From a virus (taxonomy: Duplodnaviria; Heunggongvirae; Uroviricota; Caudoviricetes), in the IMG/VR virus record IMGVR_UViG_2526164633_000052: a DNA stretch of 15,394 bases; one strand, given 5' to 3'. The notes beneath the pieces are model-generated. The model did no database searches. It had not been told where the DNA came from and saw only the letters and a program-made list of their open reading frames with translations. Position 1 is the stretch's first letter. Each line of letters starts with the position of its first letter. Position numbers and translations under genes: made by a program. This document shows, in pieces, positions 3,936 to 12,901 of this stretch.

Positions 3936-4486
3936 CACTTCACCTCCTGCGGCGGTTCCGGTAGCGGCATCCAGTGAGTTGCTTGCTCAATACCATTACC
4001 CGGCTTAATCGTTGCATCTCCGCGCCGAAAGGTGCTTCCGGTATAGCGTGCGGAGCATATTAGCGGTTCAACCAGAGAGCTATCGAAATTCACCGAAATA
4101 AGCACGTTCTGGCCCTTTTCAGGCATTCGATCACTACAGATTATCCAACTATCCGGAGTTCCCGGAGAGTTGCCATTTACATCGAAGTTTGGCTCTGCGT
4201 CCTGAACCAGGAGGATGTAACCATTCTTGGCTGTATCAAGTTCTAACGCCTCGGTGACGGTGCCGAAATAGCGATTACCTAAATCAGCATCACAAGTGCT
4301 TACATCAATGGAAACTTCCATGCCTTCGATTAATTCTGGCAAGTTGTAAGTTTGGCTTATAGGCTCTGCTTCCAGCGATGCCAGTGCAATTTCATAAGCA
4401 CGGCGCTCAATATTGTCTCGAACGTCCAGGCCGCCTATGCGCTCTTTGATTTCTTTAATCAGTTCTTTGTCGGTAAAAGTGGTCAT
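3935..4486 (-). CDS. DUF551-domain phage protein
   Basis: C-terminal WIICSDRMPEKGQNVL...HWMPLPEPP is the typical DUF551 signature; translationally coupled (ATGA overlaps) to both neighbours. Confidence 0.7.
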   Translation of the reverse strand: MTTFTDKELIKEIKERIGGLDVRDNIERRAYEIALASLEAEPISQTYNLPELIEGMEVSIDVSTCDADLGNRYFGTVTEALELDTAKNGYILLVQDAEPNFDVNGNSPGTPDSWIICSDRMPEKGQNVLISVNFDSSLVEPLICSARYTGSTFRRGDATIKPGNGIEQATHWMPLPEPPQEVK

Positions 4487-4848
4487 GCTGTAGCCCCTTC
4501 TTGATATTTTTCAAACCAGAACACAACCGGGTCAGATTTCATTTCAACCAATCCCATACGAACCAGCGCCTTGCCTTTCCCGGACGCAAGGAATTCACGA
4601 CGACCATCACTGATAATTCGCCGATAATCTTCCAGGCTACTGCAATGCTTGTGCAGATTGCATGGGTGGCATGCCGGAACCATGTTGGATATATCGTCAC
4701 GTTCCTGGTGAAGCATATTTCCAGCAAAACGAATGACCGGTTTTACATGGTCTGCATGCCACTTTTCGCCAAGTTCGCAGCCGCAATAAGCGCAGCGACC
4801 ACCGAACTTCATGCGCAGTTCTGCACGTTGTTTTTTCGTCAGTGCCAT
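4483..4848 (-). CDS. HNH endonuclease
   Basis: CAYCGCEL...WHADHVKP...VPACHPCNLHK: two Cys pairs plus the H-N-H core; start taken at ATG 4848 (MALTKK...) rather than the ORF-track upstream Met. Confidence 0.75.
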   Translation of the reverse strand: MALTKKQRAELRMKFGGRCAYCGCELGEKWHADHVKPVIRFAGNMLHQERDDISNMVPACHPCNLHKHCSSLEDYRRIISDGRREFLASGKGKALVRMGLVEMKSDPVVFWFEKYQEGATA

Positions 4849-4849
4849 A

Positions 4850-5068
4850 TCAGCTTTCCTTATATGGATTAATTTTATTGTGCAGTGTGTTGAACGACGC
4901 CCATACCACGTCGTTATACAATTCAATAACTGGCTCAATTATTTTCCCGATTGCCCATACCAGAATTAACGGGGATATCGGTATCATCAACACGATAAAC
5001 AGAATGAGAAACAAAAATTCTGTCGCTCTACTTCTTCGCGGATATTCTTTTCTGAATAATGTCGGCAT
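4850..5068 (-). CDS. Small single-pass membrane protein (72 aa)
   Basis: GGAGAG RBS 4-5 nt before ATG 5068; one clear transmembrane segment FLFLILFIVLMIPISPLILVWAIG. Confidence 0.45.
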   Translation of the reverse strand: MPTLFRKEYPRRSRATEFLFLILFIVLMIPISPLILVWAIGKIIEPVIELYNDVVWASFNTLHNKINPYKES

Positions 5069-8568: not shown

Positions 8569-9393
8569 TCAGGCGGTGAAAGTACCAATAAAGGTTTCTA
8601 CTTTGCTGTCTTTGAATTTCTCAACAAGCAGATCACGAAATTCGTTAGCCATTTCTTCCTGCACTGCTTCCAGCTGAATAATGCGCAGAACCAGTACAGG
8701 ACGATCGCCAGTGATAATGCTGAGGCGTAATTTAAACGGACGTTCTTTCAGACCTTCAAACGGAACGCATTTAAATTCAAATGCCACTGGCATAATATCT
8801 TTGGTCTTCGCTTCGACAGACTCCATCAGGGAGCGTTTTCCGCTGAAGTCATTATCTTCAAAATCAGCGGTCTGGTTTGCTTCAATCGTGATTTTACGGA
8901 CAGCCGCAGCCGCTTTTGTTGCCTGAATAGCGTCACCATTAGCATCAAAGCCCACAAGGTAGTCGGCCCAGTCTTCAATCCATTCTGCCAGTGACTTCTG
9001 GGAGTTACGCTCGCCATTAACAGACAACAGAGCAGAAAACGGTGCTGTCTTTTTTAGTTTGAGAGTGGCGGTGTTATCTGCGTGACCTGGTTCATCAATA
9101 GTACCCAGGTTAAGCACACTGACGGCGCGCATATTATCGGCATCGATAAAGCAGCGGGTGCCTTCATCTGCAAGATCTTTAGAATAACGGGTAAAGTCAT
9201 CGATGCTGGCAGTGGAAAGCGCACCACGGAAACGGAAGCGATTTAAATTAAATTTTTCCAGATCATGAATGCGGAAATTCTCAGGCAATGCCACAGCATC
9301 GGCACCAATCTTACTGATAATTTCATTAACACCCTGAGCAGAAATAAGGGCATGGATTTGATTAATTGCGGTTGCGTCTAAGTTCTGAGACAT
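8569..9393 (-). CDS. yfdQ: YfdQ-like DUF2303-family phage protein (274 aa)
   Basis: Length and position (between YfdP-like and YfdR-like genes) match YfdQ; GAGGA RBS upstream of ATG 9393. Confidence 0.7.
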
Positions 9394-9458: not shown

Positions 9459-9821
9459 TTAATGACCTGCTGCGCGGAGTTTTCCGTCAGGTTCACCGGC
9501 AAGAGTCAGTAATTGTCCCTGGTCTTCCTGCAGAATAGTCAGGCGACCACCGCGATTGACATACATCGGCGTTTCGGTGGTGTCTTCTTCGGAAATTTTC
9601 CCGCGGTTAGTTGGGCGAACATATGAGAGTTTGTGTTTGATTTTCACACGGTTCTCATCAAACGGTTCGATTTCCAGATTGAGTGAGACCTTCCCTTTGG
9701 TTTTCGTGTTCATCACACCGGAAGCGACTTCACTGAGAACTGCGCCGATTTTGGTTTCAAATACGCCGCCGTCCAGCTCCCCGATAAATGCCTGCACATC
9801 AGTACTGCGTTCGCTAGCCAT
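9459..9821 (-). CDS. YfdP-like small phage protein (120 aa); first gene of the leftward early operon
   Basis: Start set at ATG 9821 (MASERSTDVQ...) with GAGGAG RBS 7 nt upstream; the ORF-track extension to 10007 is Cys/Arg-rich and contains RNA hairpins, so it is unlikely to be coding. Confidence 0.6.
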   Translation of the reverse strand: MASERSTDVQAFIGELDGGVFETKIGAVLSEVASGVMNTKTKGKVSLNLEIEPFDENRVKIKHKLSYVRPTNRGKISEEDTTETPMYVNRGGRLTILQEDQGQLLTLAGEPDGKLRAAGH

Positions 9822-9956
9822 TTTGCTGCTCCTCATCATATCGACCCTGCAAGGTCGGTTGGTTTCTCCACAAAACAGAGAAGAACACCTGCGGTGGCAG
9901 CCGCCCGGATGGATTGGGTTATGAGCCCGTCGTCCGGTGATGCTCTTCTCTGTTTT

Positions 9957-10004
9957 GTAAAAAGAGCGGTACCAGCCGGAAGCAAGTGTACAAACTGGTA
10001 CCGC
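9957..10004 (-). terminator. Intrinsic terminator-like hairpin in the leftward (pL) leader
   Basis: Perfect 10-bp stem gcggtaccag/ctggtaccgc (9966-9975 and 9995-10004) with 19-nt loop, followed on the minus strand by TCTTTTT. Confidence 0.5.
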
Positions 10005-10435
10005 CAAAGCAGTGGCTGTTGTGGTGACCGGTGCTGATCTCCGGCTTGCGGTTATTTCAGACTCTCACGGGCGTTTAATTGCCCCGCCGAACAGCTCTTT
10101 TCCGCATTAGCTGCAATGTCTTTCGCGCATCAGCCTGCGCATTCACCACAACGCTGAGAGCACTTAGCCAGTTACGGCACCACACTTTGTCGCGGTTCCA
10201 TAAATGCCCTCATCGTTGCACCCTGGTCTCTTCCCAGGTGTCAAACCGAACCGCCACGCTGGTTAGGCGTCTTATCAGCATCATCATTGACTTGCACATT
10301 CCGGCTACCTGGTTTGTTTGCCCGAGCAAGGAGTGGATTGTCCCCTTTAACGTCCCCAGACCGCTAACGACGCATGTGCCATACGCCGTGTTACAACCAA
10401 ATTTTGTTTAATCTTGCCTGTGACATGTTTCTTTT

Positions 10436-10470
10436 AGATACATTATGTATCTCAAGGGTACATTGTCAAG
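10436..10470 (-). promoter_or_regulatory. Candidate pL promoter with overlapping operator palindrome
   Basis: On the minus strand: TTGACA (plus 10464-10469), 16-bp spacer, CATAAT (plus 10442-10447); perfect 17-bp palindrome agatacattatgtatct (10436-10452) overlaps the -10. Confidence 0.45.
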
Positions 10471-10496
10471 TATAAAAAAACCTGCCGAAGCAGGTT
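10471..10496 (-). terminator. Rho-independent terminator of the repressor gene
   Basis: Stem aacctgc/gcaggtt with cgaa loop (10479-10496); on the minus strand it is followed by a run of 7-8 T. Confidence 0.6.
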
Positions 10497-10507
10497 ATAA
10501 ATATTGA

Positions 10508-11182
10508 TTAGGCCTTTATTTTGTATCTTCTTGGTTTTCCTGAGAAAATTACTGTACCAATTATAGAGCAATTACCGTTGATCTTAATGTAAGGTTCAGG
10601 CCAGTTTGGGTTTAATGCTTTGAGGTAACGCTGTGTTCCATCTTCTATCAACCGCTTAAAGGTGGTTTCGCCTGTATCGTGCATCAATGCAATAACGTCG
10701 TCACCGTGGCAGGCAGGGACTTCAGGATCTACAAAAATCATGTCTCCCGGGCGGTACTCATCAATCATTGAATCACCAATCACCCGCAAGATATAAGTCA
10801 TTTCGCCACAGGGTACAGGGCAGGGATAAGTTTCTGCTGTGCTCAAATCAACCTCAGAATAGCCAACTTCTTTCCATGCTCCGGCCTGTACCCATGATAT
10901 GACAGGGACTAACGTTATTTGTTTGTTAGTAATTGAAACATCAGGTTTTTTTGTGATGTTTGTTGTCTGGTGTTCTTGATCAAGCCATCCGACAGGCAGG
11001 TCGAAACATTTTTCGATGTGCCGTGCCATGCTGTCACCGATATTTTTAGTAGCACCATCTCCCATAAACCTGCTGGTCTGGGTTGGCTCGCGATCAATCA
11101 TGGTGGCAAAGGAAGAATTCCCGCCAACACCATCTCTCAGTTTTCTGGCGTTAGACCGCCGGATGTCATGGACTGTTTTCAT
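10508..11182 (-). CDS. CI-like prophage repressor with C-terminal S24 (LexA-like) autopeptidase domain
   Basis: C-terminal VIGDSM...FKRL motifs (Ser/Lys dyad) typical of LexA/CI autocleavage domains; divergent from a Cro-like gene across an operator-containing intergenic region. Confidence 0.85.
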   Translation of the reverse strand: MKTVHDIRRSNARKLRDGVGGNSSFATMIDREPTQTSRFMGDGATKNIGDSMARHIEKCFDLPVGWLDQEHQTTNITKKPDVSITNKQITLVPVISWVQAGAWKEVGYSEVDLSTAETYPCPVPCGEMTYILRVIGDSMIDEYRPGDMIFVDPEVPACHGDDVIALMHDTGETTFKRLIEDGTQRYLKALNPNWPEPYIKINGNCSIIGTVIFSGKPRRYKIKA

Positions 11183-11198
11183 AACGAAATTAAAACCT

Positions 11199-11250
11199 TT
11201 GTACCGATAGGGTACAAGTATCTTGAAGGTTCATCTCAATCATGTAATAT
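11199..11250 (+). promoter_or_regulatory. OR/pR region: operator palindrome plus candidate rightward promoter
   Basis: Palindrome ttgtaccgatagggtacaa (11199-11217); TTGAAG (11223-11228), 16-bp spacer, TAATAT (11245-11250); GGAGG RBS at 11258-11262 before ATG 11273. Confidence 0.45.
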
Positions 11251-11272
11251 GTATATCGGAGGTACATATTGT

Positions 11273-11504: not shown

Positions 11505-12068
11505 ATGAGGCTAACCGTGGGTAAGCATCACTGGAAAGTAGAAAAACAGCCTGAGTGGTACGTGAAAGCTGTCAGAAAAACTATCGCGGCGTTGCCGGGG
11601 GGTTACGCTGAAGCTGCTGAGTGGCTGGATGTAACAGAGAACGCTTTATTCAACCGCCTTCGTGCAGATGGCGATCAGATTTTCCCGCTGGGATGGGCAA
11701 TGATTTTACAGCGCGCGGCTGGCACTCACTACATTGCGGATGCTGTCGCACAGTCTGCTGGTGGGGTGTTTGTATCGCTTCCTGAAATTGAGGAAGTAGA
11801 GAACGCCGATATAAACCAGCGCCTGCTGGAAGTCATCGAACAGATCGGGAGTTACTCAAAGCAGATTCGTTCGGCAATCGAAGATGGGGTAGTGGAGCCA
11901 CACGAGCAGACAGCAATTAATGATGAGTTGTATCTGTCAATTTCGAAGCTCCAGGAGCATGCAGCACTGGTCTACAAAATCTTTTGCGCTCCAGAAAAGA
12001 GTGACGCCCGCGAGTGTGCAGCTCCGGGCGTCGTGGCGTTTTGTGTCTGTGGAGAAACTAACGCATGA
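11505..12068 (+). CDS. CII-like / YdaT-like regulatory protein (assignment tentative)
   Basis: Second gene of the rightward operon, where CII or YdaT sits in lambdoid phages; HTH-like segment GYAEAAEWLDVTENALFNRLR; alternative GTG start at 11517 has a better RBS. Confidence 0.5.
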   Translation: MRLTVGKHHWKVEKQPEWYVKAVRKTIAALPGGYAEAAEWLDVTENALFNRLRADGDQIFPLGWAMILQRAAGTHYIADAVAQSAGGVFVSLPEIEEVENADINQRLLEVIEQIGSYSKQIRSAIEDGVVEPHEQTAINDELYLSISKLQEHAALVYKIFCAPEKSDARECAAPGVVAFCVCGETNA

Positions 12069-12901
12069 ACAGTTTAACGGCAAATAACCGTTTGTCGCAA
12101 CAGCTGGTGGTCAGCGTCGCTGAACACCTGTTGTTACGGCATGAATGCAGATTACCAAATCACCTGGCTGTAAGTAACCACAGAGAACTTTACCTGACTG
12201 TGGGGGGCGAGTTGTGCAGGAACTTAACCGCTGGTTTCGTGACGGAAGAGGACTTTATGTTCATGTTATTCGTTGGGAGCCAGAAACACAGCGCGTTATC
12301 TATCTTCGCAAAGACTACCCGCATGAGTGCTTTAGTCCTTTGTGGAAATTCAGGCGTGATTTTGTTGAGTGTGAAGGACCACCAGCACATTGATTCTGCC
12401 ATTCCGGGACGTTACACTGTTCAGGCACCTTATAAAGCGGGTGCCGGGATTGGCGTCCTGGAATTGATCAAGGCGATATATGACGCGCCAGCGTCTTTTT
12501 TATCGTCCGCATTTGCTCACATCAAAGTTATGGTGGGCTGGGCGGGGGCATCGAAAGATGCGCCGGTTTCCTTGATCACCGGTTACGCCAACCCCGTTCA
12601 GTTCACCACCAGCGAAATTGGCGTTTCCGGTGGTGGAAGTATTTCACCGATCAAGGAGGCTGCCATCATGGCTACTGTCCCAGCCCTCACTCGTCTGAAT
12701 GATGAAGACTTACATAAACTCAGTTATGTAACAACTGCACTACGTGCTCTGCGCAAGGTAACTCTTTCGGATCCCCAGGCGCATCAGGTTTTGGTAGAAA
12801 CCCTTCTTAACTTGCAGGCTGAACGTATTCGTCTGGCGGATAAGGCTAATTTTCATATTCACCGTCTCCTGAATATCAGCGGAGGGCATCGTCATGCTTA
12901 A
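12065..12901 (+). CDS. Hypothetical protein (278-aa ORF); gene structure uncertain
   Basis: Long open frame translationally coupled to both neighbours (ATGA at 12065; downstream ATG 12894 overlaps its end); no family recognised; 12178-12402 is open in three frames. Confidence 0.4.
   Translation: MNSLTANNRLSQQLVVSVAEHLLLRHECRLPNHLAVSNHRELYLTVGGELCRNLTAGFVTEEDFMFMLFVGSQKHSALSIFAKTTRMSALVLCGNSGVILLSVKDHQHIDSAIPGRYTVQAPYKAGAGIGVLELIKAIYDAPASFLSSAFAHIKVMVGWAGASKDAPVSLITGYANPVQFTTSEIGVSGGGSISPIKEAAIMATVPALTRLNDEDLHKLSYVTTALRALRKVTLSDPQAHQVLVETLLNLQAERIRLADKANFHIHRLLNISGGHRHA

Follow-up and report, generated by a model that had tools for sequence, protein, structure and literature searches.

The DNA analyzed here, referred to as the window, is a 15,394-nucleotide (nt) stretch of a Caudoviricetes genome (IMG/VR record IMGVR_UViG_2526164633_000052) that contains the immunity and early region of a lambdoid prophage of the SfV/cdtI/mEp460/Ayreon type. 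We focused on the leader located at positions 9822–10441 of the minus strand, downstream from a promoter resembling pL, in which no credible open reading frame (ORF) is present. Comparisons with relatives indicate that this leader is not one attenuator but a mosaic in which four or five RNA modules are each conserved independently. The modules are called A, X, B, T, and C in the order in which they follow the promoter. Module B has the predicted shape of a tRNA, and the position it occupies holds a genuine tRNA in other phages.

A structured leader between a pL-like promoter and the early-left genes

Between positions 9700 and 10600, the window is 97%–99% identical to phages of the SfV/cdtI/mEp460/Ayreon type and to Stx2c phages. 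An S24 repressor gene (10508–11182, minus strand) is followed by its terminator (10496–10479, minus) and directly thereafter by a pL-like sigma-70 promoter (TTGACA-16-CATAAT; 10442–10469, minus) that scores 11 of 12 in a promoter scan. An operator-like 20-nt palindrome of the type TGTAYC-N6-GGTACA (10444–10463) overlaps this promoter. Four copies of the approximately 20-nt element are present, and the other three reside at 11198–11267 in the gap between cI and cro. This layout resembles that of OL and OR and fits a repressor-controlled pL; a preliminary description of the region had placed a candidate pL at this position.

At the other end of the leader, the first leftward gene (ATG at 9821–9819, minus) codes for a 120-amino acid (aa) protein of phrog_204, the family of SfV orf32 and ST64B sb37. 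Its Shine–Dalgarno (SD) sequence GAGGAG (9834–9829, minus) is adjoined by a small variable hairpin (9859–9840, minus), which was recovered both by scanning and by RNAfold and had been noted previously. Downstream are a DUF2303/YfdQ gene (8569–9393, minus) and further early-left genes, including those for a deoxynucleoside monophosphate (dNMP) phosphatase and an Ead/Ea22-like protein, and no antiterminator-like gene is among them.

The whole leader is predicted to fold with a free energy of −227 kcal/mol (z = −5.4 relative to shuffled sequences). For the last 190 nt, which hold modules T and C, the value is z = −7.3 relative to shuffles. These values, together with the covariation in relatives described below, agree with the structured leader anticipated in the preliminary description.

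The same description found no convincing ORF on the transcribed strand, and we reached the same conclusion. The longest free-standing ORFs on this strand are 49, 39, and 36 aa, with TTG or GTG starts. A 182-aa ORF with a TTG start (9459–10007) only extends the first gene (ATG 9821) upstream in the same frame, and it crosses modules T and C, where relatives differ by insertions of unequal length. On the plus strand, ORFs at 10079–10411 and 9556–9924 (110 and 122 aa) overlie conserved RNA structures and match no Pfam family. These are listed as hypothetical proteins in the records for mEp460 (mEp460_036 and _037), Ayreon, and cdtI, and they are probably annotation artifacts. Small coding ORFs on either strand were rejected, given that no family was found and that the frames are interrupted by insertions or deletions in relatives.

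Among the explanations offered previously was an unannotated small N-like protein encoded in the leader, which we regard as barely credible. The minus-strand ORFs of 36–49 aa include one at 10075–10185 that ends in the basic sequence LMRKRAVRRGN. However, these ORFs begin with TTG or GTG without an SD sequence, the N-terminus is not arginine-rich, and the frames overlie RNA cores and variable hairpins that, in relatives, change in length by numbers not divisible by three. No boxA or nut-like site was found in the leader. PHROGs and Pfam searches of the 10 early-left ORFs returned only unknown families, DUF2303/YfdQ, dNMP phosphatase, and Ead/Ea22, so the earlier statement that no N gene is obvious holds for both the leader and these ORFs. 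According to the paper describing the SfIV genome, N, cII, and cIII are all missing from SfII, SfV, and SfIV (PMC3851460).

The leader is assembled from separate pieces

A sensitive blastn search with the 620-nt leader gave separate pieces with different relatives. For the first ∼260 nt, these are P1, P7, and SJ46 (79% identity) together with phiV10 and TL-2011b (82%). The second piece, of ∼150 nt, has counterparts in a very broad range of phages, and the last ∼185 nt match SfV, SfII, SfIV, and ST64B. Other phages hold the modules in tRNA islands, in late leaders, or as stand-alone genes. The preliminary description was correct in calling this region a structured RNA leader with a real, conserved terminator, but its view of a single element built around that terminator gives way to a mosaic of modules.

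Module B is a widespread tRNA-shaped RNA

Module B (10018–10152, minus) was defined by its consensus and covariation. The strands GUUGUGG (10152–10146, minus) and CCACAAC (10024–10018, minus) form a closing stem, named stem P1, that is extended by pairing of UG (10145–10144) with CA (10026–10025) and is followed by AAU. Hairpin 1 (GCGCA-GGCUGA-UGCGC; 10140–10125, minus) comes next, then a variable insert (10124–10046, minus), and finally hairpin 2 (GCCGG-AGAUCAGCA-CCGGU; 10045–10027, minus), which abuts the closing stem. In relatives, the 5′ and 3′ cores are conserved, and the center between them is variable. The resulting consensus is (stem P1 5′ strand)-UG-AAU-GCGCA-GGCUGA-UGCGC-(20–200 nt)-GCCGG-AGAUCAGCA-CCGGC-CA-(stem P1 3′ strand).

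The evidence for this structure comes from covariation. The closing stem is wholly different between lineages yet remains paired, as in GUUGUGG/CCACAAC, UGCAGA/UCUGCA, GUGUGAUC/GAUCACAC, and GAUUGGA/UCCAAUC. Among 176 distinct copies of B, 64 different heptamers were found in this stem, and positions 1–5 are paired in 93%–98%. The number of paired cells is 1062, compared with 734 ± 14 in shuffled controls, and a shift in register abolishes pairing. The counts of G-U versus A-C apposition in the stem (17 versus 9) are too weak alone to fix the strand. Compensatory variants are found in hairpin 1 (GCACA/UGUGC, GCCCA/UGGGC, and ACGUA/UACGU) and in hairpin 2 (GCAGG/CCUGC, GCUGG/CCAGC, and GUUGG/CCAAC). 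Furthermore, the loop sequences GCUGA(U) and (A)UCAGC are complementary, with loop 2 always carrying CAG(C/U). One copy has GCUAAU with AUUAGC, which is a compensatory change in the loop–loop helix. Taken together, these patterns indicate that B is a real structured element.

The predicted architecture is tRNA-like. A closing stem of 7–9 base pairs (bp) is stacked on a 5-bp 3′ hairpin, the 5′ hairpin begins 2–3 nt after the stem, and the loop–loop contact falls at the place where D- and T-loops would meet. Judged by architecture only, B qualifies as a tRNA-like RNA. Its genomic context is consistent with this assignment. Seventeen tRNAs are located less than 1 kb from a copy of B, and every one of them shares its strand. 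In a Massilia genome, B is directly between two tRNAs, and in the P1-like phage JL22, the second of the leader pieces listed above follows tRNA-Asn and tRNA-Thr. A 375-nt "tmRNA" is called by ARAGORN in phage swi2 (L006, 1411–1785) across a B copy and a downstream tRNA-Met; this call is probably a false positive generated from tRNA-like pieces.

B is matched in at least 170 phage records from many families, with relatives in T1-like, N4-like, Vi1-like, P1-like, and P22-like phages. Searches with exact-core patterns added over 120 IMG/VR contigs, together with at least 120 species genomes spread over the Proteobacteria. These genomes belong to Enterobacterales, Pseudomonas, Burkholderiales, Rhizobiales, Xanthomonadales, Halomonas, and Geobacteraceae, and the exact 21-nt core is present in the first four of these groups and in others. 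A few metagenome-assembled genomes labeled as other phyla also match, although these labels should be taken with caution. The most common neighborhoods are downstream from a cI-like repressor gene, upstream of orf32/yfdQ, and upstream of lysis genes in the Q/pR′ leader. When neighborhoods of B were examined for a conserved protein partner gene, only these context genes (repressor, orf32/yfdQ, and lysis) recurred.

Some copies of B, like some copies of A, are preceded by a −10 box set so that transcription would begin at the first base of the module. For B, a −10 box aimed at the first base of the closing stem is seen in 10% of copies versus 3.9% in the background, and a terminator lies within 90 nt downstream in 18% versus 2.3%.

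Two other interpretations of B were considered. A hammerhead-like arrangement (CUGAUG...GAAA) was rejected, as the residues after hairpin 1 are not conserved. The terminal inverted repeat might also reflect a miniature inverted-repeat transposable element or another repeat acting at the DNA level. Three features make this less likely: tRNAs near B share its strand, promoters and terminators are positioned as described above, and the interior is asymmetric and conserved.

Modules A and X precede an interchangeable slot

Module A (10219–10389, minus) is a structured RNA of ∼190 nt that starts at ACGGCGUAUGGCACAUGCG and includes GGUAGCCGGAAUGUGCAAG, a hairpin with the 7-nt loop YUCACCA, and a hairpin with the loop GAAGAGA. 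Its tail, CAACGAUGAGGGCAUU (10218–10203, minus), continues into module X. The A family comprises more than 180 distinct copies, which share, in order, ACGGCGUAUGGCACAUGCG, AGCGGUCC, GGUAGCCGGAAUGUGCAAGCC, the YUCACCA-loop hairpin, and the GAAGAGA-loop hairpin, with variable hairpins between these blocks. RNAalifold analysis of 29 diverse copies gave 34 pairs, 12 of which show compensatory changes, and the structure includes long-range helices. In phage P1, A is unannotated; its place in the ban operon is after trnI and before ban, at a distance of over 2 kb from Pban. P7 and SJ46 are likewise matched after trnI and before ban. The copy in phiV10 ends exactly at tRNA-Arg(UCU), and that of TL-2011b likewise precedes a tRNA-Arg.

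Module X (10156–10211, minus) is a tRNA-like minihelix present in the minimum free energy fold, wherein GAGGGCAUU (10211–10203) pairs with AAGUGCUCUC (10165–10156) across a spacer of ∼37 nt. In many relatives, the spacer is a T-arm-like hairpin (GCGG-UUCGACU-CCGC). The helix covaries, as indicated by the pairs GAGCGCACU/AGUGCGCUC, AAUAGCACU/AGUGCUAUU, and AAAAGAGC/GCUCUUUU. More generally, the 3′ tail of A (CAAC..AAGAGCAUU; CAACGAUGAGGGCAUU in the window) pairs with the leader motif that precedes the slot (AGUGCUCUU..GUUG), and this pairing explains why the motif is conserved.

This observation also bears on the search for a nut site. In relatives, the motif AGUGCUCUUUCC resembles the core of an rrn boxA, whereas the window has GUGCUCUC (10163–10156) instead. 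The latter is the 3′ strand of the X helix and covaries away from boxA in relatives, and thus the boxA/nut reading was rejected. A direct search of the leader for boxA (UGCUCUUUAACAA or CGCUCUUA) gave no match with three or fewer mismatches.

Of 189 retrieved copies of A, 122 are followed by the leader motif and a slot with variable content, and a T-type terminator follows in 115 of these 122 units. The slot contains tRNA-Arg in 37 units and canonical B in 26, and the remaining 59 hold other cassettes. A genuine tRNA-Arg(UCU) follows the same leader (AAGUGCUCUCAGCGUU) in phiV10. Relative L364 has the same leader and the acceptor strands UGUGGUU/AACCACA around canonical D and T arms and a 64-nt insert, and this cassette scores 43.9 bits with the Rfam tRNA model. 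In Ayreon, only the interior between the closing strands is exchanged, and many further cassette types occupy the slot. These comparisons indicate that A-X-slot-T is a recurring unit in which the content of the slot is interchangeable.

Several cassettes deserve separate mention. The copies in Ayreon (L001, 3380–3500), cdtI, and Stx2c phages combine B flanks and the closing stem GUUGUGGU/ACCACAAC with an unrelated interior of ∼100 nt (UAAUCCGCGAAAUGGCGCGG...). A second tRNA-like cassette type ends with CCGGG-AGGCA-CCCGG-CA-CCACAAC and has a covarying variant, GGUGG-AGGCA-CCACC. It is present in L448, L404, L064, SfV (L471, ∼1460–1485), and ST64B (L472), and it appears to be a family separate from B.

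Module T is the probable end of an inserted cassette

Module T (9959–10005, minus), recovered by RNAfold, corresponds to the hairpin at 9957–10004 in the preliminary description, whose perfect 10-bp stem, 19-nt loop, and UCUUUUU tract we confirmed. The stem is formed by GCGGUACCAG (10004–9995) and CUGGUACCGC (9975–9966), or, in its extended form, by GGCGGUACCAG (10005–9995) and CUGGUACCGCU (9975–9965), for a total range of 10–13 bp. The U-tract is at 9965–9959. The 19-nt loop is atypically long, and a simple terminator scan missed T because the loop limit of that scan is 8 nt. The stem covaries, with UA versus CG at one pair in seven and six sequences, AU, GC, or UA at the second pair, and CG or UA at the third. 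The stem is always followed by CUUUUUAC, and CUUUUU(U)AC is kept in 14 relatives. A G+C-rich stem, a U-tract directly after it, and conservation all identify T as a predicted intrinsic terminator.

At least 97 distinct copies of T plus C were recovered. Compensatory changes affect 12 of the 44 consensus pairs in 14 diverged relatives; three of these pairs belong to the terminator stem and several to the long hairpin of C. T and C are separable, as T follows the slot whatever comes next.

The presence of T had been taken to imply an antitermination mechanism for the early-left operon. That conclusion is not compelling. T lies behind the slot in 115 of 122 A-X-slot units, and the best reading is therefore that an inserted RNA operon naturally ends here; its presence in the leader does not prove that a dedicated antitermination device exists.

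One such device would be a cis-acting RNA like the put elements of phage HK022, which are about 70–73 nt, consist of two adjacent stem-loops without a closing stem, and lie just downstream from pL (PMC9378689). Module A, or the whole leader, could play this role in place of N and carry RNA polymerase through T and later terminators. The phage group lacks N yet conserves the leader terminator and another after the yfdQ-like gene. Moreover, A is a conserved, covarying structure just downstream from pL, as is putL (PMC9378689), and in lambdoid prophages B is most often encountered in the pL leader or in the Q/pR′ late leader. However, this explanation is unlikely for several reasons. The leader has no sequence similarity to the pL/pR region of HK022; a blastn-short search of the whole leader against HK022 positions 27500–32500 (nun-cI-cro) gave a best match of 15 nt (E = 0.64). 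A is ∼190 nt with long-range helices, in contrast to a stem-loop pair of 70 nt; P1 carries it far from Pban, and in phiV10 it precedes a tRNA. In addition, the terminator kept right behind the cassette would be pointless if A made polymerase resistant to terminators. B is found in virulent T1-, N4-, and Vi1-like phages as well, and it also stands alone with its own terminator. The put-like RNA suggested in the preliminary description, with module A as its sole candidate, is not favored on grounds of either sequence or architecture.

Module C has a tip resembling initiator tRNA

Module C (9862–9958, minus), a hairpin of 20–25 bp, is the long inverted repeat reported earlier. Its arms (9958–9936 and 9889–9870) give 25 contiguous pairs in RNAfold. 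Within it, an apical stem joins CCGGA (9937–9933) with UCCGG (9909–9905), and the tip is composed of GGG (9928–9926), the loop CUCAUAA (9925–9919), and CCC (9918–9916). A small variable hairpin (9904–9891) follows, and GGAGAAAC (9869–9862) ends the module. Compensatory changes occur in both the long stem and the apical stem.

Alignment reveals that the tip shares a 14-nt identity, CGGGCUCAUAACCC, with the anticodon stem-loop of E. coli metZ tRNA-fMet. The GGG/CCC pairs are invariant in 14 diverged relatives, and one ST64B-type copy has CUCAUUA instead of CUCAUAA. Three G-C pairs closing CUCAUAA are the hallmark of an initiator-tRNA anticodon stem-loop, and by this measure the C tip resembles initiator tRNA. 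CAU anticodon-like loops are also present in neighboring tRNA-like cassettes (L364, L516, and L533), and relatives of the tip are found in L472–L544.

C also occurs in other arrangements. In L518, it directly follows a promoter-like region without A-X-B-T. In SfV, an unrelated ORF (orf33) and a terminator fill the slot upstream of C, and both SfV and ST64B carry a tRNA-like 3′ end just upstream of T. These arrangements indicate that C is a separate conserved element of the 5′ untranslated region (UTR) of the first gene.

Prevalence and annotation of the leader modules

Among 5426 complete E. coli genomes, 2665 contain some part of the leader, usually with 95%–99% identity, and at least 80% of the leader is found in 800 of them. 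One E. coli chromosome, that of strain FDAARGOS_1059, is 100% identical across all 620 bases. Matches on plasmids were found in 485 places and probably represent P1-like plasmid prophages. For the 25 E. coli records listed, RefSeq shows nothing or a hypothetical protein under the match, and one plasmid also has tRNA-Ser/tRNA-Ile.

Rfam 15 covariance models gave nothing credible for 9750–10520 at E ≤ 10, and none matched the A or B positions of 34 other loci. ARAGORN found nothing credible in the whole window, including in its intron and low-threshold modes, and low-threshold calls in the leaders were discarded for having registers unrelated to the conserved stems. Neither the core sequences nor tRNA-like prophage RNAs with these sequences were found in the searchable literature; a preprint on Pas small RNAs deals with other RNAs. 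We use the term "undescribed" in the sense of absent from Rfam 15, not found in the searchable literature, and unannotated both in the RefSeq records listed and in the phage records examined, which show hypothetical-protein ORFs, a predicted promoter, and terminators alone.

At the gathering score, Rfam 15 finds only isrK and C4 in the window, and none of A, B, T, or C. The isrK match (64 bits) is directly followed by C4 antisense RNA (82 bits; 12526–12613) at 12425–12613 on the plus strand. Both are inside a 278-aa ORF (12065–12901) labeled "immunity region" in Ayreon. The locus looks like an RNA-controlled antirepressor module of the Gifsy/P1 type, and the ORF call over it may be partly spurious. 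Elsewhere in the early-left region, an HNH endonuclease ORF (phrog_2118; 4483–4938, minus) is present beside exonuclease-like genes.

The distribution described above can be used to evaluate the idea that the modules are decaying remnants of tRNA genes or repeats spread by recombination, which would make the leader junk. The region is a mosaic, its slot holds unrelated content (orf33) in SfV, and X resembles a degenerate tRNA in a region where ARAGORN finds no tRNA. Nevertheless, we consider decay very improbable. Pseudogenes would not keep identical 21-nt cores across bacterial orders while their stems covary, and sequences retained in so many E. coli genomes with such high identity do not have the appearance of debris.

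A proposed noncoding RNA operon of the tRNA-island type

We favor the explanation, with a probability of roughly 60%, that the leader is a noncoding RNA operon of the tRNA-island type located between a repressor-controlled pL and an older 5′ UTR of orf32-yfdQ. Transcription from pL would proceed through A, X, and B to the terminator T of the operon itself, with C representing the conserved 5′ UTR hairpin of the first gene. Upon loss of repressor, pL transcripts would be mostly spent on making stable RNAs. Host tRNA-processing enzymes could excise these RNAs, with RNase P acting at the 5′ ends of X and B, and RNase E or exonucleases acting at the 3′ ends. Most transcripts would end at T, and expression of the early-left genes would depend on those that continue past it. 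T would then attenuate transcription to a fixed degree, and no N-like or put-like switch would act on it.

Several observations weigh against this explanation. B is not recognized by ARAGORN or by the Rfam tRNA model (no hit at E ≤ 10), its T-like loop is 9 nt and lacks T-ψ-C, and CCA is not conserved, being located at +1 or +2 after the closing stem in 28% of copies. Because of these features, the likeness of B to tRNA rests on architecture and context and not on homology. Only 17 of 136 B copies lie within 1 kb of a detectable tRNA, and in ∼80%–90% of copies B lacks both a promoter and a terminator of its own. Predictions from sequence underlie the promoter, the processing sites, the termination at T, and the extent of read-through. 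Furthermore, mEp460, cdtI, Ayreon, and Stx2c phages are functional with a terminator between pL and a long operon, and hidden antitermination could equally well account for this. Finally, relatives were retrieved by exact core patterns, and as a consequence variation within the cores is under-sampled, and the counts are lower bounds rather than population frequencies.

If the operon model is accepted, the function of its products is a separate question. The most likely class of function for B, A, and the C tip would be tRNA mimicry directed toward a conserved host or defense factor. A more specific proposal, which we advance tentatively, is that B and the tRNA-fMet-like C tip constitute an undescribed phage tRNA mimic that serves as an immediate-early decoy or sensor for a conserved tRNA-binding factor. 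Possible but doubtful targets are a host RNase, an anti-phage nuclease acting on tRNA, a tRNA-directed toxin (VapC or AtaT, for instance), and the translation-initiation machinery. The acceptor and elbow of B might be a scaffold for swappable cargo, and A-X-slot-T might be a mobile expression cassette, although we hold this with no greater confidence. The leader could, with similarly low probability, be an immediate-early module for counter-defense or for hijacking translation. These proposals are compatible with the operon architecture.

The exact 21-nt core and the 3′ core of B are retained in phages of many bacterial orders, whereas the closing stem and insert vary freely, which suggests binding to a conserved partner. 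B is accessory and mobile, residing in moron or tRNA slots, and CAU anticodon-like loops recur in C and in neighboring cassettes. VapC and AtaT target initiator tRNA and are found in Shigella, Salmonella, and E. coli (PMC7180214). In combination, these points make a decoy or sensor that mimics tRNA the most attractive hypothesis, although the argument is one of resemblance. In contrast, no defense gene is consistently linked to B, its variable region is exactly where an anticodon nuclease would look, and the CUCAUUA loop of the ST64B-type copy departs from the initiator sequence. If B or the tRNA-fMet-like hairpin does prove to be a decoy for tRNA-directed defenses or toxins, this would represent a new principle of RNA-based counter-defense.

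Regardless of function, at least a portion of the leader is present in about half of the complete E. coli genomes searched, and the matches listed are blank in standard annotation. Rfam 15 lacks at least three conserved families of structured RNA distinguished here (A, B, and T plus C), one of which has an unusually broad host range and an invariant core. The operon model also reframes early-left expression in SfV/ST64B-type phages that lack N, as the terminator would be the end of an inserted tRNA-type cassette. The question then shifts to the level of read-through past the cassette and to the possible influence of module A.

Comparison with known systems

The leader shares with HK022 put the presence of a structured RNA just downstream from pL in a lambdoid phage without N, the position of which is taken by Nun in HK022. 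The similarities end there. The put RNAs are ∼73 nt with two stem-loops and have no sequence similarity to the leader, the modules of which are 135–190 nt with closing stems. The latter are also present in non-lambdoid and virulent phages with a conserved terminator behind them. The N/nut system of phage lambda is likewise situated between pL and the early-left genes, upstream of terminators, but the leader has no N ORF, no boxA, and no boxB-like unit.

C4 RNA of P1 and P7 (RF01695) is another phage RNA with a long closing stem around two hairpins, and it is excised from a longer transcript by RNase P owing to its resemblance to tRNA. The Rfam C4 model misses the leader, however, and the loops of B complement each other rather than an mRNA target. 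ROOL and GOLLD are structured phage RNAs of 500–800 nt, represented in Rfam, that are often beside prophage tRNAs, mainly in Firmicutes and their relatives. Like these, A and B are unexplained, highly structured, and in some phages found beside tRNAs, but they are 135–190 nt, proteobacterial, and outside Rfam.

Parts of the tRNA shape (the stack of acceptor and T-arm, the elbow, or the anticodon arm) are copied by the tRNA-like domains of transfer-messenger RNA (tmRNA) and YrlA and by the thrS operator to engage tRNA-binding machinery. The C tip appears to copy the anticodon stem-loop of tRNA-fMet in a similar manner, although the leader has no Rfam match to tmRNA or YrlA and no frame for a tag peptide.

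Phage tRNA clusters provide the remaining comparison. B differs from their members in having no anticodon loop, no T-ψ-C loop, and no conserved CCA, and it is missed by tRNA finders; ordinary tRNA operons also have no counterpart of A or C. In both the ban operon of P1 (tRNA-Asn, tRNA-Thr, and trnI) and the tRNA-Arg(UCU) locus of phiV10, however, the modules adjoin real tRNAs on the same strand. Moreover, a genuine tRNA-Arg can occupy the slot of B, with the same leader before it and the same kind of terminator after it.

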